Below are positions 3,059-26,121 of a stretch of DNA of 26,121 nucleotides, in pieces. Below the pieces are notes generated by a model. It searched no databases. It was not told the DNA's origin and saw only the letters and a program-made list of their open reading frames with translations. This DNA is from a virus. Its lineage: Duplodnaviria > Caudoviricetes. The stretch covers positions 1 to 26,121 of IMG/VR virus record IMGVR_UViG_3300021082_000470; one strand, 5' to 3'. Position 1 is the first letter of the stretch. Each line of letters opens with the position of its first letter. Made by a program: the position numbers and the translations under genes.

Positions 3059-4224
3059 TCGCCGGGATTCCGCTTGAATTCAGGACTGGGTTCGAACGTT
3101 GGGGGCTGGACGTGTTCGGAAGTTAGGGGTGCAGTAGCCGACAGGAACTGGTAGAAGCTGCCACCCTTCTCCTTCGCCATCGTCTTAGCCCGTTCCAACC
3201 ATTGTATTGCTTCCTGGACACCCTTCCGCGCAGCCTGTTCAACCGTAACCCCGTGCCAGCTACAGCGACACTGGTAATCCCACGGTGGGCGGAGCTTCTT
3301 GAAGGTTGGGTCGTCAGCTCGATAGATGTTCGTGCTGTTAAGGCCCAGCTTCTCCAAGGCCATATGCTCCTTGCGTACCCGAGCGTCTGCCGTTGCGTGG
3401 TAAGCGACATAGGGGAAGTGGTCACTGACTAGCGGATTGGCCATTGCAGCAGCTTGCCCATCGCTTAGGGCAGCAGCAGTGTTAGTCCGGAAGACGTTCT
3501 CGAGGTGAGGTTCGCTGAAGGTGTGTTCCTCGAGCTTGGTAATCACCGTATCGATGAACTCGTCTTTGTTGGTTCCTTTCTGTAGAGCTTCGGCAAGTAA
3601 GTCCCGGACGACTTGGGCTCCCTTCTCAGTGACCTCTTTATGGGTAATGGCAAAGGAGCCGGTATGTACTTTCTCCGCTGTGTCTTTGTAGTTGATACCA
3701 ACAGCAGCTGGCTTCGACCGGAGAGTCTTGACGACATTGTCGAGTACGGGTAGGTGGACAGTTTCGGCTTCCACAATCTCCGGTCCCGATAGGGCGGGGA
3801 GAAGTTCCTCAACCGGCGGGATGGAGGTATCAACTAGGGCCGCAGAGTCTGGCTCGGGGGTCTCAGCAACCGTGTCGGCGATGCCTTGGAGAAAGCTCGT
3901 GTAAGTAGCCCGAGTTAGGTCCGCTTGGATAAGGGGGCGGAGAGCTAGGATCTCCTTCTCCATCAACCCGGCTAGGGTGCCATGGGTGACAGTTTCGGCG
4001 CTGGTCTTAAGAGCACGCAGCTTCTCAAGGGTTGCTTTGAGCTTAGAGCTGGTTCCCTTGAGGATGAACTCCCTTAGCCGCTTGACATCGTCGTGCTCTT
4101 CGAAGGAGACAGCCTCTCCGAACTGCAAGGTGTCCTCGTCCTGATCTTCATCGGCGTGCATGAAGACAGTGGCTTCGGGATCTTCTTCGATGAACCGTCT
4201 GCTACGGTCACTCAGTGAAAGCAT
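3055..4224 (-). CDS. MuF / SPP1 gp7-like head morphogenesis (minor head) protein
   Basis: Phage_Mu_F-type motifs NVFRTN, YHATADARVRKEH, PPWDYQCRC; directly follows the portal. Likely start is ATG 4224 (MLSLSDRS). Confidence 0.9.
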   Translation of the reverse strand: MLSLSDRSRRFIEEDPEATVFMHADEDQDEDTLQFGEAVSFEEHDDVKRLREFILKGTSSKLKATLEKLRALKTSAETVTHGTLAGLMEKEILALRPLIQADLTRATYTSFLQGIADTVAETPEPDSAALVDTSIPPVEELLPALSGPEIVEAETVHLPVLDNVVKTLRSKPAAVGINYKDTAEKVHTGSFAITHKEVTEKGAQVVRDLLAEALQKGTNKDEFIDTVITKLEEHTFSEPHLENVFRTNTAAALSDGQAAAMANPLVSDHFPYVAYHATADARVRKEHMALEKLGLNSTNIYRADDPTFKKLRPPWDYQCRCSWHGVTVEQAARKGVQEAIQWLERAKTMAKEKGGSFYQFLSATAPLTSEHVQPPTFEPSPEFKRNPGE

Positions 4225-7200
4225 GGGCTTTGATCTCTCCGGTTGGCTCGCTTGTGATTTCCTCGAGGTCAACAACCATGTGGACCTGCTTGTGACCGAT
4301 CTGCACTTGTTTGGCTACGCCGACTACCTTGTACTTGACGCCCTTACGAGCAATGACTTCTCTCTCATCGCTGTGGCCGTCGATTCCTTCAATGGCAACA
4401 CCGGTCTTGATAGCCATTCGATAGAGGACGGGGGTGTCACCGTGAGCGAAGCCTTCAGCCGCTTTCTTGTTGGAACGAGAGGTACAGCTGCTGCACTTGA
4501 ACTGGACAGTAGAGCCAAGAGTCTCTAGGGCAGCCCACTCTTCTGTTCCGGGAGTTATGTGAGAGACACCGCGATATACTATGCCTTCGTAGGATGGGGC
4601 TTTGGCCAGTTCCTTGTGCAGATTATTCATAGCTGTTGGATCACCCTTAGCTGCACCCCTCTTTACTACCCCTAGCTCGGCCATACGAATGTCTTTGGCT
4701 GAGCCTTTCCACTTATGGAAGGGGCTGCTAATGTAGTTGTTGGAGGCAACGAAGTTCGCATGCTTCTCGGGGTCGTGCTGATGCCCGGTATTGATCAGAG
4801 ACTCCATCGTTGAGTTACTTTTGATCGCCACACGGTGGAAGTGGGGGGCACTGTATCCAGGGCTGGGCTTGAACTTGGAGACGTGAGGAGTGTTATCCGT
4901 TGGCAGGTTCTGAATCTTCTCGTTCAGCTCCTTGCTGATCATTTTCTTGGCAGCTTGCTGACCTGCTAGAGCCTTTTCGATGTCGCTGATCGGGAAGTTC
5001 CACAGCTCTTTGACGGAGGCGATCCCTAGAGCCTTGAACTTTTTCAAGAAGTGGACGTTGGTGTTGATCTCGGAGATTGCCTTGTCTGGGAAGGCTGCCT
5101 TGATAACGTTCAAGTCAACGCTGTTCTTGGGGACCAGTATCTTGGTGTTGTCTTCACCGTGGTTGAGGTAGGCAATCTTCTTGATCTGCATCGGGTTGAG
5201 CTTGCCACTCAGCATTCCCGCCAGCTTGTTAATCCGGTCTTGAACTGTTTTCCCGAGGAAGGACTTGATTCCGGTTGAAGAGACGGGCTCGAGGCTGGGG
5301 ACTGGTGCCGTTTTAGGTGCGAGCTCTGACCCGTTGGGGCCGTACATTTTCTCAAGCTTGTCCAGGCGGGCATGGAACACCGGGTCGTCGCTAACTGCCT
5401 TGAGCTTGGTCTTGTGTTTGAGGATCTCTTTGGCCTGTTCAGCCACGTCAGCGTCGGTTATGTCCTTGAAGATGACACCAGCTTGTCCCTGATTCCGCAT
5501 GCTTTGCAGTTCGGTCAGGTTCTCGTTCCACAGGCTGCCCTTTGGCATGCCTTTGGCCCGGTACGCTGTAGCTCCACCGTTGTCGATTCGCCAAGGTGTT
5601 CCGTTCTTATCAACGAGAATGTTGTCTTGGTTTTGGCCAATGACGTCCCAGTTGGCGAGCAAGGCATCGGCTACAAAGTTCTTGCCGAGCTTGGCGATGA
5701 CAGACTTCTTCTCATCCCCGCTTAGGGAACCTAGCTGCTTGCCTTCGACGTGCGGGCTGAGGAGGAAGGTCTGGTCACCTTCTTTGTGGATTGCAGAAGC
5801 GGGTGCCAACACACCCATGACGCTGTACAGCTTGTTGGTCACCGCTTCGTTGAGAATTTGCCCGAGGTTAGCTCCGGACTTCTTAACAGCCTTAGACCCC
5901 TTGCCTGTTGTAACTAGCGTGGCATTGGAAGAACCCCCTAGAGTCTCGACGTGAGTGAGAGGCAAGTAGGGGTGGGGTTGATCCTTGCCTTCTTTGGTTT
6001 TCTCAACCAGTTCGTCAAACTCTTTCTCTGTCAGGTTCTTCATGACAGAGGCGGGGATGTATTCCCCACCTTTGTAGAAGACCCCACCGATGGTAACACC
6101 ACCGGGAGGAGCATGCTGGTGGTTCTTGACTTCATCTAGTTGAAGAGGTTGGCAAAAGGGGGCGTAAGACGCCACCTCCTCTGCATGCTGGGAACCAAGG
6201 ATCTCGAGATGGTCAAGGTCGAAGTTGGGATGCCGATTCTTCCCGCCGATTACCATCTTGACAGTCGCAACCTTGGAACCGCCAGTTGTTGGCCTTGGAT
6301 AGATATGGCTGATGATTCCTTCAGAGCCGTGCAGGCGTGCTGCGGTTGGCTTTACACGGACCTTGTGCCCGATCCGGTGCGGTGGATCTTTTTCATCAAA
6401 CTGAGCTTGTCCCGTCAGCCTGATGGGATAATGTTCTCGCAGCTTGTTGCTGAAGATCATCCGGTCGAAGACAGCAACCTTGCCCTCAAGGTCGTTGAGC
6501 CGCTGGGCATAGTAAGCCCCCCAGCCGGGCTTGACGTAGGCAACAGTGATGTGGGGATGGTACTCAGGGTGAGTCTTGGTATGTGGCTGCTTACAAAGCT
6601 CTTCGTGCAGAGCGTGAAGCCCCTTGCTGATGACGTCGATCTTAAGAACGTCTGGCTTGCCTTCTTCGCCGTGGAAGCAGGTGCACGGTCCAAGCTGGAT
6701 GGCGATTGGGGCTAGAGCTGTGACTTGTGGCTCGAGGCTGTCAGCCGAGTCAGTGTGCAGACCGAAGAGGACGGTGACGTGTGGCTGGTTCTCTCGCTCT
6801 ACAAGGTGCTCGGCGTCGATTCGATGGCTTAACTGCCACACATTCCAACCTAGTTCGGAGGGGAGGTTGAAGAGGCAACATGAGAACTGGTGCTTCTCTG
6901 GCTCGGGTGCCGGCTCCTCACTGTGCTGGGATGCCGCAGGCTTCTCCTTGGTCTTCCCGAGGATCTTGTAGTGTGTATTGTTGACAAAGCCAGTGTAGTC
7001 TGCTGTGTTGTGAAAGGCGGCAAGGTGCTTGGCTGGGATTGTGAACTTGTTTCCTCCAAGCACCTTGCCCTTGTACTGACGGACTGCTTTGTGAAAGTGT
7101 TTCAGACCTTCGTGGGCGAGAGTGCCTGGCTCAGCAGTGAACATTCCGTTATAGGACTCACCAAACTGCTCGGAGTGTTGTGAGCTGTGAAGCCCATTGC

Positions 7201-8626
7201 TGTGCAAATAGGCTTCTATCTCATGCTTTGAACTTCCGCTGCTGACGTACTCTCCCTTGTGATAGTGGTTCCAATCACCACGAGTTGAAGTCCCTATTTC
7301 GTGATCTCCTTTCTTGTAGCGGTGTTTGTCAACTTTGGTGAATCCGTGCTTGCCCAGGATCTTACTAACGCTGGGTACATCCTCTGCAAACTGCTGTTGC
7401 TGTCCCTGAACCTGCAACGGCTGCTGACCTTGAACTTGTCCTTGAGCGGGGGAGCCAATTGCAGAGCCGGCCATTGCGCTGCCGCTGGTGTCCTGCGAGA
7501 AGGACTCGACGAGGGAACGGGGTTGGATCTCAAACTCAACGTCTCCACCCCAATTGAGCCAGGCACAGGGACGCAGGACTTGCTCACAGACACATTGGAC
7601 AATCTCCGCCAGCTCTTGGGTGCAAACGGAGAGAACGACGAGGAAGGGGATGCTGCGGCCACTGTATCCGCTACCTGTATCCGAGGCTTTGGCGACCTCG
7701 ATCGGGACGTCTGCCCCGTACATGATATTCTCGTCGCAGTGCTGAACCCAATCAAAGATTTGGGAACCGCCCGATACATCCTGGGGAGGGGTGTAATCGG
7801 TAAGAGGCTTGCCGTTGGAATCGAGGAGGCGAGGCAGGGTGAGGGCACCGCCGCTTAGCCGGTTCTCCCCGATCTCCCGCAGCATGTCTCGCCATGGAAG
7901 CTGGGTTCCGTCGGGAAGGGTGACCAGCATGTTGGGCGGATACCAGAAGATGTCGCCGATGTAGGCATCTTTGGTCATCCGGAGTTGGAGAAGTCGCTTG
8001 GCGCCATGGTCCATCCACTTCTCGTACCAAGCCGGATAGGAGCGGCGGAGACAGCCTGTGCCATAGGGGCTGCCGAACTCAGCGTTGAAGGTCAGCCACA
8101 ACGCCTGTGGGAAGTACATCTGCTGGCCTTTGATTCGCTCCCCAACTTGCCGACCACCTGCCTCGAGGGCACGAGCGTCTTCCGGGGCGAACTCCTTGCA
8201 GCCGTTGATGACGAGGAGGCCAGTTCGGTCTTGCTTATACAAGACTTGGAGAGGGTTGAATCCCCACCGCTTGGCATTGGTGAGCTTGGTCCGGTGGTAA
8301 TCCCACAGGAACTTCCACTGCTCCTCGACCCACTTCTTGACGATTGGGTTCTTGGCCGTGACGATCACCTCCGCCGGCATCAGAGCGGCGTTGCGGACGT
8401 TGAGGCTGAAGTTGACGATCGGGTCAGAAGTCAGCATCATCCGGCCGGTCCAGAGCCGCCACTGTGGAAGCTGGGTAACGAACAGCTCCCCATAGTATGT
8501 GAACCGGGTGCTGTGATAGTCCCGTGTGGGATCGGTTCCGATCAGCTCGGACTTGATTTGCTCCTTGCCCTTGCGTCGGCGAGTAGCTGGTCGGCCGTTG
8601 GCTGTTCCGTTATTTGTTGCCATCAT
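4208..8626 (-). CDS. Portal protein (Mu gp29/DUF935-like) fused to His-rich domains, 2H phosphoesterase, SH3-like domain, atypical kinase and ADP-ribosyltransferase
   Basis: First ~375 aa are portal-like (DPIVNFSLNVR, NAKRWGF, GSPYGTGCLRRSYPAWYEK, EQVLRPCAWLNWG) and the gene precedes MuF. Downstream catalytic motifs: HVTV/HITV; DALLANWD/RIDNGG; YRG/SCTS/ERE. Confidence 0.85.
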   Translation of the reverse strand: MMATNNGTANGRPATRRRKGKEQIKSELIGTDPTRDYHSTRFTYYGELFVTQLPQWRLWTGRMMLTSDPIVNFSLNVRNAALMPAEVIVTAKNPIVKKWVEEQWKFLWDYHRTKLTNAKRWGFNPLQVLYKQDRTGLLVINGCKEFAPEDARALEAGGRQVGERIKGQQMYFPQALWLTFNAEFGSPYGTGCLRRSYPAWYEKWMDHGAKRLLQLRMTKDAYIGDIFWYPPNMLVTLPDGTQLPWRDMLREIGENRLSGGALTLPRLLDSNGKPLTDYTPPQDVSGGSQIFDWVQHCDENIMYGADVPIEVAKASDTGSGYSGRSIPFLVVLSVCTQELAEIVQCVCEQVLRPCAWLNWGGDVEFEIQPRSLVESFSQDTSGSAMAGSAIGSPAQGQVQGQQPLQVQGQQQQFAEDVPSVSKILGKHGFTKVDKHRYKKGDHEIGTSTRGDWNHYHKGEYVSSGSSKHEIEAYLHSNGLHSSQHSEQFGESYNGMFTAEPGTLAHEGLKHFHKAVRQYKGKVLGGNKFTIPAKHLAAFHNTADYTGFVNNTHYKILGKTKEKPAASQHSEEPAPEPEKHQFSCCLFNLPSELGWNVWQLSHRIDAEHLVERENQPHVTVLFGLHTDSADSLEPQVTALAPIAIQLGPCTCFHGEEGKPDVLKIDVISKGLHALHEELCKQPHTKTHPEYHPHITVAYVKPGWGAYYAQRLNDLEGKVAVFDRMIFSNKLREHYPIRLTGQAQFDEKDPPHRIGHKVRVKPTAARLHGSEGIISHIYPRPTTGGSKVATVKMVIGGKNRHPNFDLDHLEILGSQHAEEVASYAPFCQPLQLDEVKNHQHAPPGGVTIGGVFYKGGEYIPASVMKNLTEKEFDELVEKTKEGKDQPHPYLPLTHVETLGGSSNATLVTTGKGSKAVKKSGANLGQILNEAVTNKLYSVMGVLAPASAIHKEGDQTFLLSPHVEGKQLGSLSGDEKKSVIAKLGKNFVADALLANWDVIGQNQDNILVDKNGTPWRIDNGGATAYRAKGMPKGSLWNENLTELQSMRNQGQAGVIFKDITDADVAEQAKEILKHKTKLKAVSDDPVFHARLDKLEKMYGPNGSELAPKTAPVPSLEPVSSTGIKSFLGKTVQDRINKLAGMLSGKLNPMQIKKIAYLNHGEDNTKILVPKNSVDLNVIKAAFPDKAISEINTNVHFLKKFKALGIASVKELWNFPISDIEKALAGQQAAKKMISKELNEKIQNLPTDNTPHVSKFKPSPGYSAPHFHRVAIKSNSTMESLINTGHQHDPEKHANFVASNNYISSPFHKWKGSAKDIRMAELGVVKRGAAKGDPTAMNNLHKELAKAPSYEGIVYRGVSHITPGTEEWAALETLGSTVQFKCSSCTSRSNKKAAEGFAHGDTPVLYRMAIKTGVAIEGIDGHSDEREVIARKGVKYKVVGVAKQVQIGHKQVHMVVDLEEITSEPTGEIKAHAFTE
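4235..4720 (-). other. R-S-E clade ADP-ribosyltransferase domain (VIP2/Alt-like) at the portal-fusion C-terminus
   Basis: YRG (4568-4576), SCTS (4478-4489), ERE (4358-4366) in canonical order and spacing; boundaries approximate. Confidence 0.85.
5345..5950 (-). other. Atypical (PI3/4K-, HipA-, CtkA-like) kinase domain in the portal fusion
   Basis: LGGSS loop, VKK lysine, NE glutamate, DALLANWD (5645-5668), DNIL, RIDNGG (5573-5590); boundaries approximate. Confidence 0.8.
6420..6890 (-). other. 2H phosphoesterase domain (Acb1/T4 gp57B- or LigT-like) in the portal fusion
   Basis: Two HxT motifs: PHVTVLFG (HVTV 6770-6781) and YHPHITVAY (HITV 6542-6553), 76 codons apart. Confidence 0.85.
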
Positions 8627-8906
8627 TCAGCTCTTCGATCGGTTTTACTGTGACTTGCTTTGGGTCTCCAGCTTCAATGCGGAAGTCCCAGTAAGGGTTG
8701 CCGTATGAGTCTCGCATGTTGGGGAGACAGATAACGGTTCCTTGTTTGATTTGCTCAGCTATGTTCTGAGCTACTTTTTGTGCCAAGACAGGGATGATCT
8801 CCTCACCTCCGTGTCCTTGGAAGATCATACCCGCCGGGTAGAATAGGATACCAACACCTTCAAGCGGTTTGTCACCTTCTTCAAGGATCTTCGGCATCAT
8901 GGACAT
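8610..8906 (-). CDS. Hypothetical protein (98 aa)
   Basis: ATG at 8906 overlaps the TAA of the start-less upstream frame (TAATG); 3' end overlaps the portal start. Confidence 0.7.
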   Translation of the reverse strand: MSMMPKILEEGDKPLEGVGILFYPAGMIFQGHGGEEIIPVLAQKVAQNIAEQIKQGTVICLPNMRDSYGNPYWDFRIEAGDPKQVTVKPIEELNDGNK

Positions 8907-9190
8907 TATTTCACCATTGCAGCCTTCTCGTTGAACCACCGTTGTGACTTAGCCTTCTCGGCCTGCTCTACGCTACCCGTGCGGACTAGGACCGCAGTGT
9001 ACAGGCCATCCTTGGTAGAGGGATCTACTAAAGCGTGCTGGTATTGTAGCTCCGCGAGAGTGTACGGTATATTGGCAGCCCAGCATTGCTTGAGCTCGAT
9101 TGCCCACCCTAGGTAATCGGCTGGGATTCCAGGGTAGGCTGCGGCAAGGAGGCAATCGAGCTTCGCTGTTCCCGGATTTTCTCCAGGGAT
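8906..9190 (-). CDS. Start-less -1 frame ORF; putative frameshift extension of a tail assembly chaperone (lambda gpGT-like)
   Basis: 94 sense codons open in the -1 frame relative to 9109..9459 (...LAAAYPGIPADYLGWAIELKQCWAANIPYTLAELQYQHAL...RWFNEKAAMVK*); no ATG/GTG/TTG until the last three codons; stop is coupled to the next ATG. Confidence 0.6.
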   Translation of the reverse strand: MPGENPGTAKLDCLLAAAYPGIPADYLGWAIELKQCWAANIPYTLAELQYQHALVDPSTKDGLYTAVLVRTGSVEQAEKAKSQRWFNEKAAMVK

Positions 9191-9459
9191 TTATTGCCGA
9201 GAGCCACGATCACTTCGTGAAACTCAAAGGCCTGGCTCTCGAAGACCTGGTCTTCTGTGACTTGATTCTCAGGAGTGCTGAAGAGCTTGGCTAGGTACTG
9301 CCTGATCTTACGCCAGCGGGCTTCTTGATTAGCTTCCGTCTCGCACTCCCCGAGGAAGCGGCGAGCAGCGAACACATCGACCACAGCCGCAACCCCGTTC
9401 TCCCCTTCTAGCAGCAGTGTTGCTGGCTTACTGAGTTTGAATGTTCCGTTATCGCTCAC
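9109..9459 (-). CDS. Putative tail assembly chaperone (116 aa)
   Basis: Helical-looking small protein with a Ser/Pro-rich tail overlapping a start-less -1 ORF, as in G/GT pairs. Confidence 0.55.
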   Translation of the reverse strand: MSDNGTFKLSKPATLLLEGENGVAAVVDVFAARRFLGECETEANQEARWRKIRQYLAKLFSTPENQVTEDQVFESQAFEFHEVIVALGNKSLEKIREQRSSIASLPQPTLESQPIT

Positions 9460-9472
9460 TGTTGCCCTTTCG

Positions 9473-11287: not shown

Positions 11288-11292
11288 TGGAG

Positions 11293-12741: not shown

Positions 12742-12750
12742 TGACTCACA

Positions 12751-12966
12751 CTACGGTACATCACGTGGCATCCACCCGTTCCAGCTCCACCCACATTCCC
12801 ACATGTCTCGCTCTACGGCTAGAACATCAGGGTAGGGGTTAGCCGTCTTAGGCAAGCCGCGAACCCAGCGAGCTTCGTAGCCAGCGTTGTAGGCATCGAT
12901 CTTGGCGGCTGTGTCCTTGTCGTAGGGGAGTACTGACAGACACAGGAGGATGAAGGTGTTGAACAT
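12751..12966 (-). CDS. Rmf/CrpP-fold-like small protein with hydrophobic N-terminus
   Basis: AYNAGYEA...G...NPY......R..W..GW matches the Rmf-type pattern; TAATG coupling to the tail tube gene. Confidence 0.6.
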   Translation of the reverse strand: MFNTFILLCLSVLPYDKDTAAKIDAYNAGYEARWVRGLPKTANPYPDVLAVERDMWECGWSWNGWMPRDVP

Positions 12967-13830: not shown

Positions 13831-14505
13831 TTAGTAGGTGTGGTAATGAGTGCCGTGGCTGTATCCGTGTTCTTGAGCCAGCTTGTGAAAGGCGGCTAGG
13901 TTCTTATGGGGCACAGCAAACCCGCCACGACTGTCAGAATCGCCTCCGTGCTTGCCAACCAGCGTGTGGAACTTCTCTGTGTCAAGACCATTACCACCTT
14001 CGTACATCCCATGGGCGAAGTCTTTGCTGTGGTGCTCTTTCAAGAACTTGGACCGTTGTATTCTTGGATCGTCTGGATTAGCCCGATTAGCTTCCTCATG
14101 CTGTGTCACTGTCTCCGGCTGCATCAACACCGGGGGAGCAACGGAGCCTGCGTCGGAGAGGCGGGACTCGGCTTCGGAGAATTGGTGTTCAGCGAATTGG
14201 TCATCTCTAAGGTGTGGTTCTGGAAGTTTGGCTTTTGACTTGTTATGCTCGTCCATAACCTTGTCGTTGTGTCTAAGGACAGAATGCCAGAGGTGGTGCT
14301 TACCCTCATCAAATGACTTCCTTGCCTGTTCTTCGCTGCCACCGGTGTGGGTTCCGTACCACTGGCCATGTTTGTATCCGGGAATGGTGCCTGGCTTGTG
14401 AGGTGTGCGATGCACTTCCCAGCGGTTATTGGGAGTAGCCAGCGAGACGTTTAGATTGTATAGCAGCTTGTTTAAGCCGCTTTTGGAGACTTTCTTTAGG
14501 CCCAT
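13831..14505 (-). CDS. His-rich putative internal (cargo) polyprotein, 224 aa
   Basis: Likely start ATG 14505 (MGLKKV), 4 nt after the upstream stop; 23 His; QFAE, QFSE and QHEE motifs; C-terminal shared His-rich domain. Confidence 0.75.
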   Translation of the reverse strand: MGLKKVSKSGLNKLLYNLNVSLATPNNRWEVHRTPHKPGTIPGYKHGQWYGTHTGGSEEQARKSFDEGKHHLWHSVLRHNDKVMDEHNKSKAKLPEPHLRDDQFAEHQFSEAESRLSDAGSVAPPVLMQPETVTQHEEANRANPDDPRIQRSKFLKEHHSKDFAHGMYEGGNGLDTEKFHTLVGKHGGDSDSRGGFAVPHKNLAAFHKLAQEHGYSHGTHYHTY

Positions 14506-15100: not shown

Positions 15101-15754
15101 TTAATAATGATCGTGTACCGAATAGTGATCACCATGGGTGAACCCAGACGCCTTGGCATCCTTGTGAAAGGCTCTAATACCTTCCTTCGGTATGCCGAAA
15201 TGCGTGACGTTTTTTCCTTCCTTATAGTCTTCAGCGTGTCTGTCTAACAGGTCGTGAAATGTGTGCTTGTTTCCCTTGCTGTGATGAAACGTGCCAACAA
15301 AGTGTGTAGAAGTATTCGCCTTCTCCGCATGCTGGCTGCTGACAGGAAGATACTGGTTTTCCGCGACCAGCTCTCTCGCCCTCTCCGATGTTACGTGGGC
15401 AGCATTGAGCTGGCGGGTGTCCCGGAGGTCTTCAGTCTCTTCTTCATGCTGAGAAGACTTGTAGCCTATGTGATGTTCCTGGGCGTCAGCCATTGCGTCT
15501 TCCAATGAGGAATGGAGAGCAGCACCCACTCTGATCCCTTTCCCCGAGTACTTCATGACATGTGTGGAAGGCTTGCCGGTCTTATAGATGACGTCCCCTG
15601 GGGTCTTCATTTTCTCAATGCTGTAGTTGAGTCCCTTACTGCTAGATGCTTTGTGCACCTCACGACCTCGAGCATCGTACCCTTTCTGAAAGTTCAGGCC
15701 GTCGGAGGATTCGGAGTGCTGGGACACAGGCTTGATGTCTTGGGGTCTTGACAC
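15101..15754 (-). CDS. His-rich putative internal (cargo) polyprotein, 217 aa
   Basis: 21 His; QHSE, QHEE and QHAE flank two small domains; contains scaffold-like HVTSERARELVAENQYL; C-terminal shared His-rich domain. Confidence 0.75.
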   Translation of the reverse strand: MSRPQDIKPVSQHSESSDGLNFQKGYDARGREVHKASSSKGLNYSIEKMKTPGDVIYKTGKPSTHVMKYSGKGIRVGAALHSSLEDAMADAQEHHIGYKSSQHEEETEDLRDTRQLNAAHVTSERARELVAENQYLPVSSQHAEKANTSTHFVGTFHHSKGNKHTFHDLLDRHAEDYKEGKNVTHFGIPKEGIRAFHKDAKASGFTHGDHYSVHDHY

Positions 15755-15756
15755 GG

Positions 15757-16943: not shown

Positions 16944-16944
16944 C

Positions 16945-18123: not shown

Positions 18124-18126
18124 TTG

Positions 18127-18617: not shown

Positions 18618-18622
18618 TCAAA

Positions 18623-18889: not shown

Positions 18890-18890
18890 G

Positions 18891-19412
18891 CTAGAGGTTC
18901 CCTGGCAGGTCTGCCTTGTGCCGTTTGCGGTTGCCTACTGGCTCTTGACCCGTGCTCTCTTCCACAACGACTCGGATTGGATTGTCGAGCTTGTGGATCT
19001 CAGGTCGGAAGTTGGTGACTGTAGGGGTGTGGTCGAAGCTGGGAGGCTGCTCGGGTACTTGGAAGCGACCCCAACGAGCCTCACTTAGCTGGTCCCGGTA
19101 AGTCTGCACCGAGTCGATGACACTGGCGGGAGGAACATTGCCCCGACGGGCGAATAGGAAGAAGGCTGCAATATTGGCGTTGCACCACTTGCACCAGGCG
19201 TTGCTGGCTGCCATCAGGGCCAAGCTGGCAGTTGAGTACTGGTTGCAGAGAGCGGAATTCATCTCCACCGCAGCTCGCTCAATAGCCCTGGTGATGTTAA
19301 GCGTCTCTTCGGCACTTTCTACCCCGTCAACATTGTCGTCGATATGCGCCAAGACGCCAGCCTCGCTCATGAGGGCTTCGACGTCAGCACGGACGCAATA
19401 GGTTGTAGTCAT
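18891..19412 (-). CDS. Mu gp36-like (DUF1320) head-tail adaptor
   Basis: YC...DV N-terminus, ITRAIERAAVEMNSAL...Y, WCNANIAAFFLFARR pattern; located after the capsid genes. Confidence 0.8.
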   Translation of the reverse strand: MTTTYCVRADVEALMSEAGVLAHIDDNVDGVESAEETLNITRAIERAAVEMNSALCNQYSTASLALMAASNAWCKWCNANIAAFFLFARRGNVPPASVIDSVQTYRDQLSEARWGRFQVPEQPPSFDHTPTVTNFRPEIHKLDNPIRVVVEESTGQEPVGNRKRHKADLPGNL

Positions 19413-19418
19413 TGGGAA

Positions 19419-19790
19419 CTAGGTCTTGCCGACCATTGCGGCTTCACCGTCTGCACTGGACATGATTTTGATGAAGCCGAAAGGTGCGATCTTTGTCACG
19501 TCCAAAGCTGTCCACTTGGAGGCAGGGAGCGTGACTACACCGTTGGTGCCGATGTTATCGACCAGCACAAAGGTTCCGTCCGCTGCCTCAGAGGCGTGAA
19601 TTGTAATCGTTGTGATCGTTGCACCGGGCTTGACGGCGATGTACGTGAATTCTCGGATGTCCACTACGTCACAATCGCCTAGAACCGTGTCGGTGTGGAA
19701 GGTGGTGAGAACACCATACCGAGGCTTGACGGCCATCGCTCCGTCGCTGCCGGTAGGGGGATTCAGTTTGGGGGTGAGTAGTCCGGCCAT
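19419..19790 (-). CDS. Small beta-sandwich-like virion protein (123 aa)
   Basis: Alternating beta pattern (ITIHASEAADGTFV, FIKIMS). Confidence 0.65.
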   Translation of the reverse strand: MAGLLTPKLNPPTGSDGAMAVKPRYGVLTTFHTDTVLGDCDVVDIREFTYIAVKPGATITTITIHASEAADGTFVLVDNIGTNGVVTLPASKWTALDVTKIAPFGFIKIMSSADGEAAMVGKT

Positions 19791-19793
19791 GGA

Positions 19794-20219
19794 TTAATGT
19801 GGTTGGTTGAGGATTTCTTTGGCCCGTTCCGGTGACACCGGTTGGACTTCGTACTCGGAAAATTGGAGCCCACTAAGAGATGGCTTGATATCTTCTTCCA
19901 GCTTCTCTTCATGCTGGGTGTTGTCCTCGTCGTGGACCTTGATCTTGACCCAGTGGTGAGAGTTGTCTTTTGCCCCACCACCACCCTTGAAAGGCTTGTG
20001 TTCGGTACCATGGTCAACAACTGTGTGCTTGATGCCAGCAGCGTTGAGAGCCTTGGAAGTTTTCTCGGCGTGGTGGCCAGAATTCAGTCCATGTGAGTAA
20101 TAGAACTCACGGCGAAGGATGTGGTGCCCGCCACTGAAAGTATGTTCAGAAGGATCAGAACTTGGCTGGTCTTGGCCATACAAGGCTTGGTTAATTGCCT
20201 TCTTGTGTTTCGCAGCCAT
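19794..20219 (-). CDS. His-rich putative internal (cargo) protein, 141 aa
   Basis: 15 His; QHEE and QFSE precede a C-terminal VSPERAKEIL motif shared with the scaffold; TAATG coupling. Confidence 0.75.
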   Translation of the reverse strand: MAAKHKKAINQALYGQDQPSSDPSEHTFSGGHHILRREFYYSHGLNSGHHAEKTSKALNAAGIKHTVVDHGTEHKPFKGGGGAKDNSHHWVKIKVHDEDNTQHEEKLEEDIKPSLSGLQFSEYEVQPVSPERAKEILNQPH

Positions 20220-21136
20220 TAGGTGTCTCCGCCGTTGATCCAGGTGACTTGGATAGTGCCGTTGACCACAACCGTTGCGTCGCCGTCGATGTCAGCAGCG
20301 GCCACACCGAGGTTGAGGAAGAGGTCGATAGGTGTTGTGCGGCCGTCTAGGATCGCCCCGACTTGGGCAGCAGCGATGTTAGCGAGGACACCAGTGACGA
20401 CAGCAGGGGCCGTGTTGATGACGGTCGAGGAGGGGAAAGTCTTGACCGCTTCAGCACTGCCCGGCATCATGTTCATCATCGTCGTGGCTAAGGTCAACGA
20501 CGAGGCGGTGACGCTGCCGATCCCGATTGAGACCGTAACCCCCGACTTGAGAGTTGTTGCGATGACCGAGGTCGTTGTAACTGCAACACTGACCACCGTG
20601 TCGATAAAGCGGAGACGACCGGCTGGGAAGTCATACAGCTTAAGGCCGACATAGGCCAAGGCGTCGGTGATTGTCAGTGGAGTGTTGACGAGGGTGAGTA
20701 CAGTGCGGCGGAAAGAGCCCGAGCCGCTCTCCGAGGCGGTGACACCAATTCCGGATACAACGGCACCTACTGTGTCAGCAGGGGTGGTGGCACCTGCGTT
20801 GAGAATCTCCAGCTTCTCGTGATTCCAGCGGAGAGTGCCGCCGACAGGGATCTCAGCCTGGATTCGGGGGTAGCTGGTGCTGCTGATCACCTTCTTGACT
20901 GTTGGGGTAGCTACCGCCGTGTCGGCGTTGTAGATCGAGATCTGCTCGATATCCTTCTGCTCACCCGCCCCTGTCAAAAGAGTGGCAACGGTGACGCCAT
21001 TCAGCTGCCCTACCTCTTCACTGAGACCGTTGGCCCCTCGCCATAGCACACTGTAATAGGGCTGAGTCGTAGCCGGAGCACCTGCCAAGACTGCGGTGAG
21101 AGATTGAGTTGAGTCTTTGAGAACGGCTATGGACAT
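20219..21136 (-). CDS. Two-domain beta-rich virion accessory protein (305 aa)
   Basis: GGAG RBS; Thr/Val/Ala-rich; jelly-roll-like C-terminal half (KLYDFPAG...IDLFLN...GTIQVTW). Confidence 0.7.
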   Translation of the reverse strand: MSIAVLKDSTQSLTAVLAGAPATTQPYYSVLWRGANGLSEEVGQLNGVTVATLLTGAGEQKDIEQISIYNADTAVATPTVKKVISSTSYPRIQAEIPVGGTLRWNHEKLEILNAGATTPADTVGAVVSGIGVTASESGSGSFRRTVLTLVNTPLTITDALAYVGLKLYDFPAGRLRFIDTVVSVAVTTTSVIATTLKSGVTVSIGIGSVTASSLTLATTMMNMMPGSAEAVKTFPSSTVINTAPAVVTGVLANIAAAQVGAILDGRTTPIDLFLNLGVAAADIDGDATVVVNGTIQVTWINGGDT

Positions 21137-21250
21137 GTATTTTCTCCAAGGTAGAAGTAGTCCAAGGGCTGGTCACTAAACACCACTGCCGATGTAGTGA
21201 TTACCCATGCAGCGACTTCAAATAGGGGTTTCATGGCGGCGCGAACCTGA

Positions 21251-21637
21251 CTACTTGTTGTCCTTGTTTGCGTTCTTGCCGGCCTTGCCTTCCAACACCC
21301 CCTCAGCGTGGCTGGCGTCGGACGTCGTTTTCAGCAGCTTAACACTCATCGAATTCGTCAAGTTGTGTGTCTCGACCTGGAGCGCGTAGGTCTTGGATTG
21401 GTAGTACAGAACCGCCGCCGTCATCAGTGGGCCAAGGAACGCCAGAACGAGAATCAGCACTCGCTCTATGGATGCCTGCTTTTCCTTGGTCGCAGCTGCA
21501 ACGGCAGTCCGATCTTTATCTTCCTTGTCGCTTCCAGCCTGCCGGTCTTTATCTTCCCGCTTCTCTTCGGCTGCGGCTTTGAGCGCATCAGCGGCTAGTC
21601 TGGCACGGGTTTGTTCGGGCGTTTCGTAGTCGGCCAT
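21251..21637 (-). CDS. Single-pass membrane protein (128 aa)
   Basis: GGGAG RBS before ATG 21637; charged N-terminus, TM VLILVLAFLGPLMTAAVLYY, then HNLTNS...AEGVLEG. Confidence 0.7.
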   Translation of the reverse strand: MADYETPEQTRARLAADALKAAAEEKREDKDRQAGSDKEDKDRTAVAAATKEKQASIERVLILVLAFLGPLMTAAVLYYQSKTYALQVETHNLTNSMSVKLLKTTSDASHAEGVLEGKAGKNANKDNK

Positions 21638-21677
21638 TGTATCTCCCAGCCAAGGGAGTCTAGGAGGCATGTGCAAA

Positions 21678-21737
21678 GGGAGTGGGAAGGTAATGAGGCT
21701 CCCCACTCCCCAAGGGCCAACACCGGCGAAGGTGTTG
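21678..21737 (-). other. Two intergenic hairpins
   Basis: Perfect inverted repeats 21678-21686/21702-21710 (9 bp) and 21718-21724/21731-21737 (7 bp). Confidence 0.5.
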
Positions 21738-21763
21738 TCAGAACATGGTTTGGGGACTGACGG

Positions 21764-22318
21764 CTATTTGTTCTCCGCCTTGGCTTCCAGTTCGGCCAGA
21801 CGCTTCTTCGCGGCTTCCTTGACAGTGGGGCGGGTGTCGCAGTCAGCAATGTCTTGGAGCTTGTCCTCGCTTCTCATGTTGGCGATGTGGGGAATTGCCT
21901 CCTGAGCCGCCATGTTTTTCACAGGCGACTCTTTGTCGGCGATGTCCTTGCCAGTAGCGGCATCCTTGACGGCATGCACCGGCGGCTTCGCAGCTTCCGT
22001 ATCCGTCTTGACCGCGGCGGTATTGGGATTGTTGACCGGGTCCTTGGGGAGCTCGTTGGCCACAGCCTTGACACCAGCCTGGAAGCCTTCGACAAACTCC
22101 TTGGCAGGGGGCTTGTCTCCGGTCTTCGCAGCCACATAGGCACTGATCTTCTCCATCGTGCCTTGTGGCATTTCCTTGGCGGCAAGGACCAAGAACTTCT
22201 CCTTGTCCGCACCGCACTTGTCCCCGATCGCTCGAAGTGCGTCCAACTTGGACTGCCCAGTGCCAGAGTCTTTCAAGTGCTCCAGCAAGTTCAGAACGTC
22301 CGGATGAGTCTTCGACAT
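21764..22318 (-). CDS. Hypothetical protein after MCP (184 aa) with small C-terminal helical domain
   Basis: Strong GAGGAGG RBS (22323-22329) before ATG 22318; C-terminal DTRPTVKEAAKKRLAEL. Confidence 0.75.
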   Translation of the reverse strand: MSKTHPDVLNLLEHLKDSGTGQSKLDALRAIGDKCGADKEKFLVLAAKEMPQGTMEKISAYVAAKTGDKPPAKEFVEGFQAGVKAVANELPKDPVNNPNTAAVKTDTEAAKPPVHAVKDAATGKDIADKESPVKNMAAQEAIPHIANMRSEDKLQDIADCDTRPTVKEAAKKRLAELEAKAENK

Positions 22319-22366
22319 ACGACCTCCTCTTACACACATAATGGATTTAACAACCAACGTTGCCTA

Positions 22367-22396
22367 ATTATAGCCCAGGGCTACACAGAAAGACAA
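22367..22396 (-). promoter_or_regulatory. Candidate sigma70-type promoter with overlapping palindrome
   Basis: TTGTCT (22396-22391), 18-nt spacer, perfect TATAAT (22372-22367); palindrome TAGCCC-N-GGGCTA at 22371-22383. Confidence 0.5.
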
Positions 22397-22418
22397 GGCT
22401 CAGAGAAAATCCCTGAGC
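22387..22418 (-). terminator. Candidate intrinsic terminator/attenuator after MCP
   Basis: GCUCAGGG-AUUUU-CUCUGAGC stem (8 bp, one G-U) followed by an interrupted U-rich tract CUUGUCUUUCU, 10 nt after the MCP stop. Confidence 0.5.
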
Positions 22419-22428
22419 TAGCACCGGT

Positions 22429-23547
22429 TTATGGGGTCACGTCGGCGTTGAAGATAGCTCCGGGGATGTACAAGGCAGGGAAGCCATTGTGCACGTGGTT
22501 GAGCGTCCAACCCGAAGGATTCCAGTTGGCATAGCCGTAGGCATAGTAGCCATGCCGGAAGGCACGCACGCCGTTCGGTCCTTCGGTGATCACTTCACCA
22601 CCGTTGAGGTACTGGCACCAGTCTGGCGACGGGGTGGGAAACATCGTGACCTGGTCGTCGGCTACCAGGGTCGTATCAGTGGCAGCGTTCGACACCCACA
22701 CTTCGAGCGAGTAGTCCACGATGTGCCATTGGAACCAAGGCAGAGCACGCAACACCGCCGAGAAGCGACCCGGACCTTGCCGTACAACCGACTCGAACGG
22801 GGTGTTCGAGGTTCCGGCCTGTGCCTTGATCTTGTCGTTGTTGAGGAGGTACTGCCAGGTGTTGCTGTTGAGCACACCGTGTTCCAGGCCCATACCCGTA
22901 AGAGCGTTGCAAGCTAGGTTGGCAGCGTACACGTCGCCGGGGATATCCGTACTGGCCGTTGCCCAGCTAGCCCCGATGATTCCGTTCAGCTGGTTCTTGT
23001 TGTTGGCCGGGATCTGGTAGTCGATCGTGTCCTGACCGCCGGAGAAGCCATGCTTCAGCTCGTCACCTTCTTGATCGAAGGTGTAGGAGCCACGCATCAT
23101 GGCAGCCGTCTGAAACTCGATCAGGTTGGCAGCGGCTTCGGCCAAGTACCGCTTCTGCCGCATGAGGTAGTTCTCCCCCATGCTGTCGATCACGGTAACA
23201 GCCTGACCGATCTGACGACGGTTGACCATATCCTCGTCGGTGAGCGGGATGCTTTCCGCCACACGGGGAATGGTGAACCGAACGCGACCAGCCTTCTGGG
23301 GCTTGACTTGAGTGTTCTGAGTGCCAGGCACCGTAGCCGTGGCAATGCGCCGAGTGCGGTTGAACACGTCGTAGCTGCCCTCACGAAGAGGGTAGTCGAT
23401 CATGTTGCCGCTTTGGGCGTCGGGATTGCGGGCTGCTAAGCCCCACCCGAACAGATCGGAGAGAACGGTTCCGGGGAGCTGAACCCGGCTGACCTCACGG
23501 AGAATAACTTCCGGTGCCAGAAGCTCTTGAACTGAACGGCCAGCCAT
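22429..23547 (-). CDS. Major capsid protein (HK97 fold, lambda gpE/Phage_cap_E-like)
   Basis: 372 aa; follows the head decoration gene; IEFQTAAMMRG, IDYQIPANNK, WATASTDIPGD, GFPALYIPGAI patterns; AAGAGG RBS at 23558-23563. Confidence 0.9.
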   Translation of the reverse strand: MAGRSVQELLAPEVILREVSRVQLPGTVLSDLFGWGLAARNPDAQSGNMIDYPLREGSYDVFNRTRRIATATVPGTQNTQVKPQKAGRVRFTIPRVAESIPLTDEDMVNRRQIGQAVTVIDSMGENYLMRQKRYLAEAAANLIEFQTAAMMRGSYTFDQEGDELKHGFSGGQDTIDYQIPANNKNQLNGIIGASWATASTDIPGDVYAANLACNALTGMGLEHGVLNSNTWQYLLNNDKIKAQAGTSNTPFESVVRQGPGRFSAVLRALPWFQWHIVDYSLEVWVSNAATDTTLVADDQVTMFPTPSPDWCQYLNGGEVITEGPNGVRAFRHGYYAYGYANWNPSGWTLNHVHNGFPALYIPGAIFNADVTP

Positions 23548-23776
23548 AAAGATTCAACCTCTTAGTTTGGGACTCGAAGTTTGAAGTGGACTCAAGTCCA
23601 CAAAGTTGCCCTTGTTGCCTGCTTTCGCAGACTGATGTTTATTCACCGAGGTTTTCCGTCTCTCGATAAGACGCATATCAAAGCCACCAGCACCGACCCC
23701 GCCACTCTCTTCCACTTAGACCCGCTCCCATTTGGCGTTCAAGAAGGGCCGATGCTGGTGGGTTGTTGTCCATGGC
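23548..23776 (-). ncRNA. Structured intergenic RNA / MCP leader (class unknown)
   Basis: 16-bp stem 23684-23699/23746-23761 with two G-U pairs only on the sense strand; GUCUGC-GAAA-GCAGGC hairpin (23617-23632); GUGGAC-UUGA-GUCCAC hairpin (23586-23601). Confidence 0.5.
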
Positions 23777-24577
23777 TTACGCTGACACAGGCACCGTACC
23801 GCCGGTCAAGACGTACCACATGAGAGTGGCACCGTCCGTACCGTAATCCGCATACATCAGAGCCGTGCCGCCCATCTTCTTGTTCGCCGTCGAGAAGGTG
23901 AGGGTCGTGCTCACAGCACCACCGGCGTCTCCGTACACGATCGTATTGGCAGCGGCGGTGATCACCATGCTGGCATCGACACCGTTGTACAACAGCACGC
24001 TGTAACCGCGACCCACTGTAGCCAACGTCGGCAGGGTGAAGTTCACCGCGTTGGTAATCGCGATGAACATGTCACCGTGGTCGGTGTCTAGCAAGGTGTA
24101 GTCGGCGGTCTTGAAGTACCGCTTCCGAGGCGCCAAGAGGAAGGCAGATCCGTGTGGAGTCGGACCGACCATCTTGAAACCGGTGCGAAGGAGAACAGCC
24201 AGCGAAGCCTTGTCTTCGCCGTAGATCTCGCTTTCGGCCTTGATGATACCGCCGGTCAGCACTTTGGTGAACTTGTCTTCGGCCGTTCCGTCACGGTCCA
24301 GCATCGACAAGTGCATCGGCAGGATGCCAATAGCGTTTTGCGTTCCGTCGTTGGCATCGGCATCATACAAGTAGCCCAACCCATCCGAGTCCTTGAGAGC
24401 CATGATGTTGCCACCACGGATCGTCGTTGTCAGGTTGGTGTTGCCCGCGTCGGTGATTGACGACTTGAGAGTGACCTTCTCGAGAAACTTCCGGTGGTTG
24501 TTGTCTGGGCCAGTGGCCAGGAACTGAACCTCTTCAGTTTCCTTGAGAGCTGAAAATCCAGGCTTGCTTTCGGGCAT
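23777..24577 (-). CDS. Head decoration protein with C-terminal fibre-like domain (266 aa)
   Basis: Between scaffold and MCP; gpD-like TIRGGNIMA...YDADANDGTQNAIGIL; C-terminal KTADYTL...VNFTLP; AAGGA RBS. Confidence 0.75.
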   Translation of the reverse strand: MPESKPGFSALKETEEVQFLATGPDNNHRKFLEKVTLKSSITDAGNTNLTTTIRGGNIMALKDSDGLGYLYDADANDGTQNAIGILPMHLSMLDRDGTAEDKFTKVLTGGIIKAESEIYGEDKASLAVLLRTGFKMVGPTPHGSAFLLAPRKRYFKTADYTLLDTDHGDMFIAITNAVNFTLPTLATVGRGYSVLLYNGVDASMVITAAANTIVYGDAGGAVSTTLTFSTANKKMGGTALMYADYGTDGATLMWYVLTGGTVPVSA

Positions 24578-24699
24578 CGTATCTTTCCTTCGTAAGTCCT
24601 AGCCTTCTTCCCTATCTCGACTCTCTGGGGAGAGTTGCTACGGTTGTCGGGTCGTCGGCTAGGATGTCTCCGGGTTGTCTGCTGTGTGCAGGCTGAGTG

Positions 24700-26121
24700 C
24701 TATGAAAGGGGGTTGGAGCGAGGGTTCGCCGGGTTGTATCGCCCGCCGGGGAAGTTCGTGCTCATAACTTGGTTTGGGTGCTTGGCCGTCTCGTTGGCGA
24801 CCATCTCGCTGACTCCGAGGCGAGGCTGGATTTGGGCAGCAGTCTGAGCGAGATAGGCGTTGGTTCCGACTAGCTCTCGAGCACGTTCGGGGCTGACATG
24901 CCCCGGTCCGATGAAGTCACCCTCTTCGAAGAACTGCTCGGGCTCGTTGGGTCCGAAGATGGGCTTGCCATCCGGACCTAGGGTAATGTTGCGGAAGGGG
25001 GGCGACTTGCTGTCCTCGATCTGAGACGTGTTGAGCACTTCCTCGAGGAACTGGAGGCTACGAGGCATTGCAGAGGCAACCATCTCGGCGACTTGGGCTG
25101 TCGTATAAACGGGTTGCTCTTTCTCCTCGGCGAACTGAATCACAGACTTGCCGTCTTCCGTCGGGTTGAGATCGGAGAGCAGCTTGACTCGCAGAGAGGG
25201 TGGGATCTTGGCTGTGCTGATAGCCGTTACCACCTTGTCCCGAGCGGCATTGTTCTTGGCTTGGGCCTCGGCAAACTGAGCGGCCTTGGTGTACGTTTCA
25301 GCCTTGGCCTTGGCTTCCCGTTCAATGACGAGTGCACGCTGTCCGGCTTCGATTGCTGCTCGAGCCTTGGGAGACAGGGCTTTGAGCTCGTCTTCGGAAA
25401 ACTGGAGCTGGTTATGTTCTTCGTACTGCTTGTCGATGTTAGGCTTGTGAGCCTCGTTCGTCATTGTGTAGTGCTTGCCGTGCTTAAACCCAAACAAGTC
25501 AGCTGCTTCATGGAACTTTTGGGCGTGTTCCGGATCGACGGCAAAGTGCCCAGAGTTGTCACCCCGTACACCCACAGAACCGTGTCCGTGGTGTACGACC
25601 AGGTGGTTGAACTGCTGGAACTTTCTGTTGCTCTTTAAGGGCTGGAACGTTCCGAGGTGGTGCTCTTTGCCAGCGAACTGGGCGCTGAACTTTTGGGCCT
25701 CTTCTTCGCTGAACGGCATGCTCGTCTCCGTTACTGGGGGACTCTCCTCCTTGTCCTCGGCTTCCTTGGCTTCGTTTTCGGCTTTGGCCTTCACCGCGGT
25801 ATTGATTCCGGTGAGGAGGAGGTCGATGGCAGTGTCGGAGCTGATGTCAAAGTCCGAAGGGAGGACTACGTTGAACTGGGCTAGGCCAGCGACGACAGCG
25901 GCCAGCTTCGACTTGTCCGTTGCAGCCGGAGGAATGTCCGGGTTGTTGGTCAGTGGGTCTTGGTTCGCTGGAGGAGACTCGGGGATGATAAGGTCGGTGG
26001 GAGGTGTTGCCTCATACTCTGCATCGCCCGCTTCGGGTGTTGCCTCGGCGTCGTTCTCGGGGTTGGATGGGTCGGCGGGACGCTTCTTCTTTTTGGAATC
26101 GCCTGCACCGAAGTCATCGTG
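24700..26121 (-). CDS. Scaffold / C-terminal part of protease-scaffold protein (5'-truncated)
   Basis: Frame is open 109 codons upstream of the ORF-track start to the window edge (HDDFGAGDSKKKKRPADPSNPEND...); acidic Pro-rich and coiled-coil segments; directly upstream of decoration and MCP genes. No protease domain is visible in the window. Confidence 0.75.
   Translation of the reverse strand, partial: HDDFGAGDSKKKKRPADPSNPENDAEATPEAGDAEYEATPPTDLIIPESPPANQDPLTNNPDIPPAATDKSKLAAVVAGLAQFNVVLPSDFDISSDTAIDLLLTGINTAVKAKAENEAKEAEDKEESPPVTETSMPFSEEEAQKFSAQFAGKEHHLGTFQPLKSNRKFQQFNHLVVHHGHGSVGVRGDNSGHFAVDPEHAQKFHEAADLFGFKHGKHYTMTNEAHKPNIDKQYEEHNQLQFSEDELKALSPKARAAIEAGQRALVIEREAKAKAETYTKAAQFAEAQAKNNAARDKVVTAISTAKIPPSLRVKLLSDLNPTEDGKSVIQFAEEKEQPVYTTAQVAEMVASAMPRSLQFLEEVLNTSQIEDSKSPPFRNITLGPDGKPIFGPNEPEQFFEEGDFIGPGHVSPERARELVGTNAYLAQTAAQIQPRLGVSEMVANETAKHPNQVMSTNFPGGRYNPANPRSNPLS

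Follow-up and report, generated by a model that had tools for sequence, protein, structure and literature searches.

The window analyzed here, a 26,121-nucleotide stretch that makes up positions 1 to 26,121 of the virus record IMGVR_UViG_3300021082_000470 (Duplodnaviria; Caudoviricetes), is a 26-kb record with a late-gene operon on the minus strand. The operon starts with a truncated scaffold gene, continues with the genes of a head decoration-like protein and a lambda E-like capsid protein and with connector and tail genes, and then reaches the genes of a 1472-residue portal and a MuF protein. A short peptide motif, Q-[F/H]-x-E, recurs in six proteins of the window. In the broader form Q-[F/H/Y]-x-E, it is very probably the cut site of the phage's own clan-SH prohead protease, judging from where it stands in this phage and its relatives.

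A six-frame scan of the window gives 21 matches to the Q-[F/H]-x-E pattern, all on the minus strand. Twenty lie within six genes, in line with a preliminary description of this DNA that had placed the linkers in six proteins: six in the portal, five in the scaffold, three each in open reading frames (ORFs) 15101 and 13831, two in ORF 19794, and one in MuF. The remaining match is in a non-coding frame and includes a stop. In 2000 shuffles of the 32 translated minus-strand ORFs, the mean number of sites is 1.5 and the maximum is 7. QFxE (12 versus 0.75 expected) and QHxE (8 versus 0.7 expected) are the top two of 4170 such trigrams. The codons at the 20 sites are CAG/CAA 16/4, TTT/TTC 6/6, CAT/CAC 5/3, and GAG/GAA 12/8, and the flanks have no common DNA. 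Since the codons at the motifs and at the helices described below are synonymously mixed, the repeat is at the protein level, and a DNA-level repeat is rejected. Chance origin is ruled out by the shuffle and simulation counts.

The pattern is clade-wide and far above chance. All 36 protease-scaffolds examined (662–1717 residues) contain 6–20 motifs each, 343 in total versus 9.8 expected, and 67 long portals contain 217 versus 17.4 expected. The strict motif is present in the tail of 57 of the 67 portals and in the first 390 residues of none. Thirty of these portals were scanned against Pfam, and 26 were analyzed after dropping four without a tail domain. Only 2 of their 120 motifs fall within Pfam domains, compared with 30.2 expected; none of 20,000 simulations gave fewer than 12. 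A motif separates 55 of the 60 domains from the preceding domain. The expectation that relatives keep the motif at domain borders and swap the domains between is thus borne out. The swapped cargo comprises 2H, GNAT, ADP-ribosyltransferase (ART), InPase, sigma-70, topoisomerase I, zeta toxin, DUF5661, LPD3, and MuF domains. Conflict-type domains (2H, GNAT, ART, InPase, sigma-70, topoisomerase I, zeta toxin, LPD3, and ART-PolyVal) occur in 26 of the 30 portals scanned. When 103 proteins are cut in silico at the motif, the resulting 536 segments form 47 clusters and 92 singletons. Histidine-rich (His-rich) modules number one to six in 31 of the 36 scaffolds. In ten partly overlapping phage loci, 14 of 124 ORFs carry the strict motif, and all are scaffold, portal, MuF, or small His-rich proteins; allowing Tyr in the motif adds one neck gene. 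Portal fusion and scaffold insertion of the predicted cargo are both clade-wide. Sigma-70 domains are found as motif-bounded portal cargo in P0038, P0040, and P0056, which suggests a virion-delivered sigma factor.

The scaffold gene runs past the end of the window, and its features are as follows.

24700..26121, minus strand: 3' 473 codons of a 750-residue prohead protease-scaffold gene, with the protease domain (about residues 1–170) past the end of the stretch
25705..25716, minus strand: variant site P-F-S-E from a relaxed scan, the upstream border of the scaffold His-rich insert
25459..25632, minus strand: His-rich module B within the scaffold (hidden Markov model (HMM) from non-window segments, E 7.5e-8)
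24925..25404, minus strand: five scaffold Q-F-x-E sites, with first bases 25404, 25278, 25137, 25053, and 24936
24868..24900, minus strand: C-terminal scaffold helix, a predicted coat-binding element, conserved in the clade and with a similar helix in reduced Planctomycete scaffolds

At the P-F-S-E site, the Pro is invariant across 42 scaffolds, and Met and Glu are at least 90% conserved. The upstream protease gene that the preliminary description called for is recovered as the N-terminus of the scaffold gene itself. The whole gene is present in relatives L001–L003. The 750-residue protein P0010 equals the truncated scaffold ORF at 471 of 473 residues, and L014 overlaps the end of the window with 77 of 81 bases matching. 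In the window and in L001–L003, the protease domain is N-terminal, the scaffold is C-terminal, and the gene is upstream of the decoration and capsid genes; in L002, a terminase gene is upstream of the protease.

The model of the N-terminal 170 residues has a pLDDT (predicted local distance difference test) of 84.6. In VIA, the protease model matches T4 gp21 with Z 8.2 (root mean square deviation 3.1, 114 aligned) and the varicella-zoster virus protease with Z 8.1, and the next unrelated structure scores 4.8. The top rows in Foldseek are herpes assemblins and T4 gp21, all with E above 0.001. All 153 homologues have His49 and Ser106, and 152 of them have His134. Sequence profiles give fainter signals. 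The Pfam family Mu-like_Pro (PF10123) matches 2 of 38 homologues, both below the cut-off. The family HMM scores 3.3 bits against Mu gpI, a score reached by 1 of 300 shuffles (2 of 300 for P2 gpO and 24 of 300 for T4 gp21), and the weak profile alignment to Mu gpI and P2 gpO is in register at the catalytic Ser; the sequence comparison of the protease family by hhalign is not significant. The modeled fold and the invariant residues identify the part beyond the window end as a clan-SH prohead protease that forms one protein with the scaffold.

The motif lies directly after the protease domain, along the scaffold, directly after the portal core, and between the cargo domains. A protease profile search gives 249 homologues, of which 150 are listed, and the residue counts that follow are among the matches listed. 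In the near clade, Q-F-x is followed by Glu in 88% of 312 sites. In the far clade (396 sites), the third residue is Ser in 64%, the fourth is Glu in 35%, Leu in 21%, Ala in 15%, and Asp in 13%, and the second is Phe, His, Tyr, Leu, or Met. T4 gp21 cuts after L/I-x-E (PMC9026906). For P2, the gpN cut lies between residues 31 and 32, and residue 141 is the last of the gpO protease domain (PMC7552001); the P2 record has Phe at both positions. We somewhat favor a cut after the aromatic or His residue. Two points count against that choice: the near-clade Glu is compatible with a T4-like cut after Glu, and the structure closest to the protease model is gp21. The preliminary description had assumed such a cut by analogy with T4 gp21 and phiKZ gp175; the near clade agrees with it, but the 35% in the far clade and the Phe preceding the P2 cuts do not, and we consider it unlikely. 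A cut after the small residue is less likely still.

The motif is likely older than the cargo, because distant scaffolds without cargo already repeat Q-F-S. Among the matches listed, the 107 distant homologues of at least 350 residues have a median of 430 residues, compared with 757 in the 46 near homologues, and their His content is less than half as high. These distant protease-scaffolds are mostly cargo-free, and many of them repeat Q-F-S directly after the protease domain and through the scaffold. The motif is therefore likely an old scaffold-degradation signal that was reused as a cargo linker. A natural control, seven reduced cassettes in Planctomycete chromosomes, agrees with this order of events: the portal ends at the core and has no motifs, and the short scaffold keeps the helix while the Q-F sites are gone. 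The protease was not found in the three searched genomes of the seven with a reduced cassette. The cassettes (L017:6368-11029, L018:4820-9404, L019:5447-10024, and L020–L023) are compact and combine genes for a short scaffold, a decoration protein, a capsid protein, a gp36-like protein, and a portal without a tail; their ORF list showed no obvious terminase or tail gene. In L020–L023, the cassette is upstream of a Flp-pilin-like gene cluster. The reduced cassette is possibly a domesticated capsid or nanocompartment.

The portal carries a series of predicted cargo domains behind its core, and the MuF gene follows.

7457..8626, minus strand: portal core (Portal_Mu; about residues 1–390), without motifs
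7199..7390, minus strand: His-rich module A, between QFAE (7393) and QHSE/QFGE (7180, 7168) (HMM from 22 non-window segments, E 3e-8)
6965..7117, minus strand: portal His-rich module B, closed by QHSE (6928) (HMM E 2.6e-4; model pLDDT 80)
6512..6817, minus strand: 2H phosphoesterase (Acb1-like), closed by QFDE (6403) (PF13563, 42.1 bits, above cut-off)
6191..6391, minus strand: small basic module, closed by QHAE (6190), with no homologue among 330 proteins searched
5327..5959, minus strand: predicted HipA/PI3-4-kinase-like domain, with a HAPPGG module before it (motifs; Atlas neighbors HipA_2, 0.93, and PI3_PI4_kinase, 0.92)
4277..4543, minus strand: predicted ART domain with YRG, SCTS, and ERE (PF03496 E 4e-4, below cut-off)
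3055..4275, minus strand: MuF minor head protein (PF04233 E 4e-12), with one QFGE (4114–4125) after an acidic leader

Three enzyme domains had been claimed for the portal, and they differ in support. The 2H domain is above the Pfam cut-off and has two HxT motifs, at residues 616 and 692; the Acb1 family PF23474 scores 23.5 bits there against a cut-off of 27, and PF13563 scores higher. The ART domain is below the cut-off but has the expected residues, and the ART domains of relatives P0041 and P0042 pass the PF03496 cut-off. The kinase-like domain is predicted from its motifs and Atlas neighbors, and it has no Pfam, NCBIfam, or PDB sequence match. Portal residues 746–812 have no homologue among the 330 proteins. 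The HAPPGG-type module (about 5970–6180, minus strand) heads the large terminal enzyme block, and all 16 copies found have a motif at most 45 residues upstream; the module is a candidate leader for large-cargo ejection. In MuF, the MuF domain occupies residues 222–339 of 406 and no further family is recognized C-terminally, so a polymorphic toxin is rejected. The MuF proteins of L007 and L008 likewise have motifs in the N-terminal part. Many relatives have a portal–MuF fusion through the motif; in L010:7296-11417, the portal is fused to a MuF that has an intein-like insert by eye, and Pfam gives a weak intein match in P0051. A 109-residue gene directly upstream of the portal (8610–8939, minus strand) resembles portal residues 226–277 (BLAST E 3e-4; portal-core HMM E 0.002), and no ORF like it scored in L007–L010.

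The motif also occurs in three small free proteins.

19794..20219, minus strand: free 141-residue protein (ORF 19794) with a basic His-rich module, QHEE (19916), QFSE (19865), and a C-terminal scaffold-like helix of weak score (19809–19841)
15101..15754, minus strand: free 217-residue protein (ORF 15101) with QHSE (15721), a basic module, QHEE (15451), a helix (15365–15397), QHAE (15334), and module B (15116–15292)
13831..14505, minus strand: free 224-residue protein (ORF 13831) with a basic module, QFAE (14199), QFSE (14184), QHEE (14103), and module B (13837–14016), without the helix tag

A His-rich domain had been described as common to four proteins, and an HMM of module B from 10 non-window segments does match the scaffold, the portal, ORF 15101, and ORF 13831 (E 4e-15 to 3e-4). 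In a profile search for longer proteins, module B gives six matches, the four from the phage studied here and two known scaffolds. Searches of PDB and viral structures with module B gave nothing at E 0.001, the weak rows being ferredoxin-like folds (such as Cas2 and S6), and the Atlas gave no usable match. The module A HMM gives 44 matches in scaffolds and 7 in portals; PHROG and PDB searches with module A gave no informative match. Pfam gave one match to HicA (PF07927, E 0.095), and HicA is not among the results of the PDB sequence search. The N-terminal modules of the three free proteins have no homologue among the 330 proteins. The C-terminal module of ORF 13831 is identical at 57 of 82 residues to a QHAE-bounded module within scaffold P0028.

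The preliminary description saw a scaffold-like helix in three proteins and took it for a scaffold-mimic tag on free proteins. We built a helix matrix from 42 non-window scaffold tails and scored 275,316 positions. The helix stands in the scaffold and in ORF 15101, where the copy scores 32.7 bits and ranks second of all positions. The copy in ORF 19794, five residues after a motif, scores 17.7 bits, no better than an unrelated match in a pilus gene (18.3 bits), and ORF 13831 has no tag. The ORF 15101 helix is identical to the scaffold helix at 9 of 11 residues but at only 2 of 11 codons, indicating selection on the helix peptide. The candidate tags are internal (ORF 15101) or C-terminal (ORF 19794), and a short N-terminal piece before a motif is present only in ORF 15101. 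All three free genes are intact and tightly coupled to late genes by overlaps or few-base gaps; the start of ORF 19794 overlaps the upstream stop. Tag-like helix words also appear in the portal tails of P0075 (residue 435), P0055, P0059, and P0079, with scores within the chance range.

Put together, these features suggest the following chain. The portal and the protease-scaffold would carry fused cargo into the procapsid, and some free proteins, best exemplified by ORF 15101, would be recruited through a copy of the scaffold C-terminal helix. The protease would then cut at Q-[F/H/Y]-x-E. The predicted products are a 47-kDa portal, basic modules of 8–12 kDa, a 20-kDa 2H domain, and one 71-kDa piece with the kinase-like and ART domains. 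The acidic scaffold and tag fragments would leave, and the basic modules, the 2H domain, and the kinase–ART piece would stay with the DNA, to be ejected and to act in the next host against early defenses or to redirect host functions. The helix-bearing pieces are predicted to be acidic, and the predicted small modules of the window have isoelectric points (pI) of 6.9–9.9. Across the 36 scaffolds, 79 His-rich fragments have a median pI of 9.0, versus 5.6 for 165 others, although the selection for His may itself raise the pI. Retention and ejection are plausible because the retained internal proteins of T4 are small and basic (PMC9026906). For the whole chain from loading through cutting and retention to ejection, we lean slightly in favor. 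Three loading routes with one release code, namely scaffold strings of up to six basic modules, portal enzymes, and helix-tagged free proteins, can be proposed only tentatively. Of the three cargo routes in the preliminary description, portal fusion and scaffold insertion hold across the clade, and the free-protein route is the weakest, since the helix is missing from ORF 13831 and from the free proteins of L002 and L003.

Several observations weigh against this scheme. The T4 core fragments and the SPN3US propeptides that result from repeated cuts mostly exit the head (PMC9026906, PMC10052503), and the modules could therefore be expelled likewise. The strict motif is absent from 10 of the 67 portals; at the corresponding junctions, eight of these carry R-F-x-E or Q-F-D-L/V, and the other two, which are the most distant, carry x-L-S-T-like words by eye. 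Because homologues share descent, conserved positions do not give independent counts. Of the five free motif-bearing proteins seen, three have no helix tag (ORF 13831 and those of L002 and L003), and a fourth has one that scores at chance level. Finally, the portal domains are not all separated by motifs: the kinase-like and ART domains have none between them and would form one piece, and neither is above the Pfam cut-off in the window.

The fate of multiply cut pieces underlies an alternative in which the motif is a protease site but the His-rich modules are expelled, or are structural or DNA-condensing filler, and only the portal enzymes are perhaps delivered. The modules are small and basic and are absent from 5 of the 36 scaffolds, consistent with such a role. 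However, their number (zero to six per scaffold), their variety, and their movement among scaffold, portal, and free genes resemble conflict-driven turnover, and T4 internal proteins of like size are kept and ejected (PMC9026906); we regard this alternative as improbable. The free His-rich genes might instead be a reservoir or by-product of module shuffling that is not packaged, which would leave the portal and scaffold routes standing. The missing tags and the presence of the ORF 13831 module inside another phage's scaffold fit this explanation, but the three genes remain intact, with tight coupling to late genes, and in ORF 15101 the residues of the scaffold helix are kept rather than its codons, which makes a by-product quite improbable.

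The drift of the last motif position in distant homologues could also mean that the motif is an uncut docking or assembly signal, with the cargo remaining on full-length portal and scaffold. Such a signal would hardly be expected directly behind an intact protease domain or repeatedly in a scaffold that needs removal; moreover, the motif is lost in the cassettes where the protease was not found, and P2 processes both gpO and gpN (PMC7552001). We give this possibility little credence. Modules swap at motif borders, as they would if the repeat served module exchange as a recombination site in the DNA and the peptide were incidental, but the mixed codons at the 20 sites and the lack of common flanking DNA largely refute it, leaving it barely credible. 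A protease site that releases cargo remains our preferred interpretation of the motif.

Among the closest known systems are the protease-scaffolds of P2 (gpO) and Mu (gpI/gpZ), which likewise have an N-terminal serine protease and a C-terminal scaffold; gpO and gpI, at 284 and 361 residues, are too short for cargo arrays, in contrast to the proteins of 660–1700 residues here. Mu gpH is processed at its C-terminus, a point for which our literature searches gave no paper. Mu shows a similar design by plain count: the scaffold part of gpI has five x-L-S-A words, and the tail of the Mu portal has two A-L-S words. Mu-like phages have a nested protease-scaffold layout (PMC2628397). P2 gpO cleaves the capsid protein gpN, itself, and presumably the portal (PMC7552001); unlike the cleaved P2 capsid protein, the capsid protein of the phage studied here has no motif.

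T4 loads small basic proteins and an ADP-ribosyltransferase into its prohead, where the prohead protease frees them, and later ejects them; by means of the targeting sequence, related phages can load varied proteins (PMC9026906). The small basic predicted products of 8–12 kDa are a likeness to the T4 internal proteins. However, the T4 cargo (IPI–III and Alt) is encoded by separate genes and has an N-terminal core-binding tag of 10–19 residues that is cut after L/I-x-E, whereas here most cargo forms part of the portal and scaffold proteins, the candidate tag copies the scaffold helix at an internal or C-terminal position, and no N-terminal targeting propeptide of 10–19 residues is found. The system works like the T4 internal proteins but is not a member of that group; it belongs with the portal-fused polyvalent effectors. 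Fusions of 2H, PBECR, InPase, ART, and Nudix domains to portal, MuF, or capsid-processing peptidase are predicted to be packaged and injected (PMC5512222, PMC9503650), and effector fusions to portal, MuF, or head peptidase have been published as predicted packaged effectors (PMC5512222, PMC9503650, PMC5576092, PMC7302621). The same domain types as in the polyvalent effectors of Iyer et al. (2017, 2022) occur on the portals of relatives here. Those accounts discuss fused metallopeptidases, and their available text names no common linker motif and no release at each junction by the prohead protease.

In phiKZ (gp175) and SPN3US (gp245), one protease cuts many head proteins at S/A-x-E and A-x-E, including portal and ejection proteins (PMC9026906, PMC10052503), but these cuts mostly remove N-terminal propeptides, not folded cargo domains in a C-terminal string. 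The C-terminal helix-turn-helix of the P22 scaffold suffices to pull a fused protein into the procapsid (PMC9962691); that loading is engineered and needs no protease site, whereas the tag of ORF 15101, flanked by cut sites, would be a natural counterpart. Jamet et al. (2017) described MuF genes directly downstream of the portal and proposed effector delivery from the head (PMC5576092); the MuF here has no recognized C-terminal toxin, and the cargo is on the portal and scaffold instead. The P1 proteins DarA–Hdf are head-bound anti-defense proteins (PMC12810830). Portal-fused effectors (predicted to be packaged), T4 capsid-targeting sequences, and multi-site maturation in giant phages are thus already known. 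Our literature searches, whose coverage stops short of most subscription literature and the supplements of Iyer et al., found no account of motif-delimited arrays in a protease-scaffold or of a natural scaffold-mimic tag.

The remaining head genes of the window carry no motif.

23777..24577, minus strand: head decoration-like protein (weak HDPD and phrog_3583 matches), 0 motifs
22429..23547, minus strand: major capsid protein, lambda E-like (PF03864 E 8.6e-14), 0 motifs

The portal and MuF genes (3055–8626) lie 3' of the tail genes, distant from the protease and capsid genes (22429–26121). The portal and the free genes are covered by DNA contigs from other samples without indels or joints, and neither stretch is spanned by one contig. 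Among the sequencing runs, none of RNA is listed as holding the sequence. A 71-residue gene (12751–12966, minus strand) matches ribosome modulation factor below the cut-off (PF04957, E 5e-5), and PADLOC returned nothing relevant. Neither the protease-scaffold nor the portal core had a match in an isolated phage. Seven Planctomycete genome records contain genes 42–52% identical to the portal core and capsid. A search of genome contigs did not find the protease, and 401 Planctomycete-phylum genomes gave only one weak match (E 7.9e-4); the host is therefore deduced solely from the similarity of portal and capsid, an indirect basis on which a Planctomycete host is likely.

If correct, this scheme would explain how portal-fused effector domains become free proteins, a step absent from the available text of the polyvalent-protein accounts, and would offer a simple evolutionary path from scaffold-degradation motif to cargo linker. 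Scaffold-borne modules would be loaded at the scaffold copy number per procapsid, and a natural scaffold-mimic tag would parallel the engineered loading of P22. The analysis points to two recurring small module families, A and B. The motif would also make virion-delivered proteins, which act before phage gene expression, recognizable from sequence, and would read out more than 100 kinds of segment as candidate virion-delivered anti-defense proteins of Planctomycete-infecting phages.

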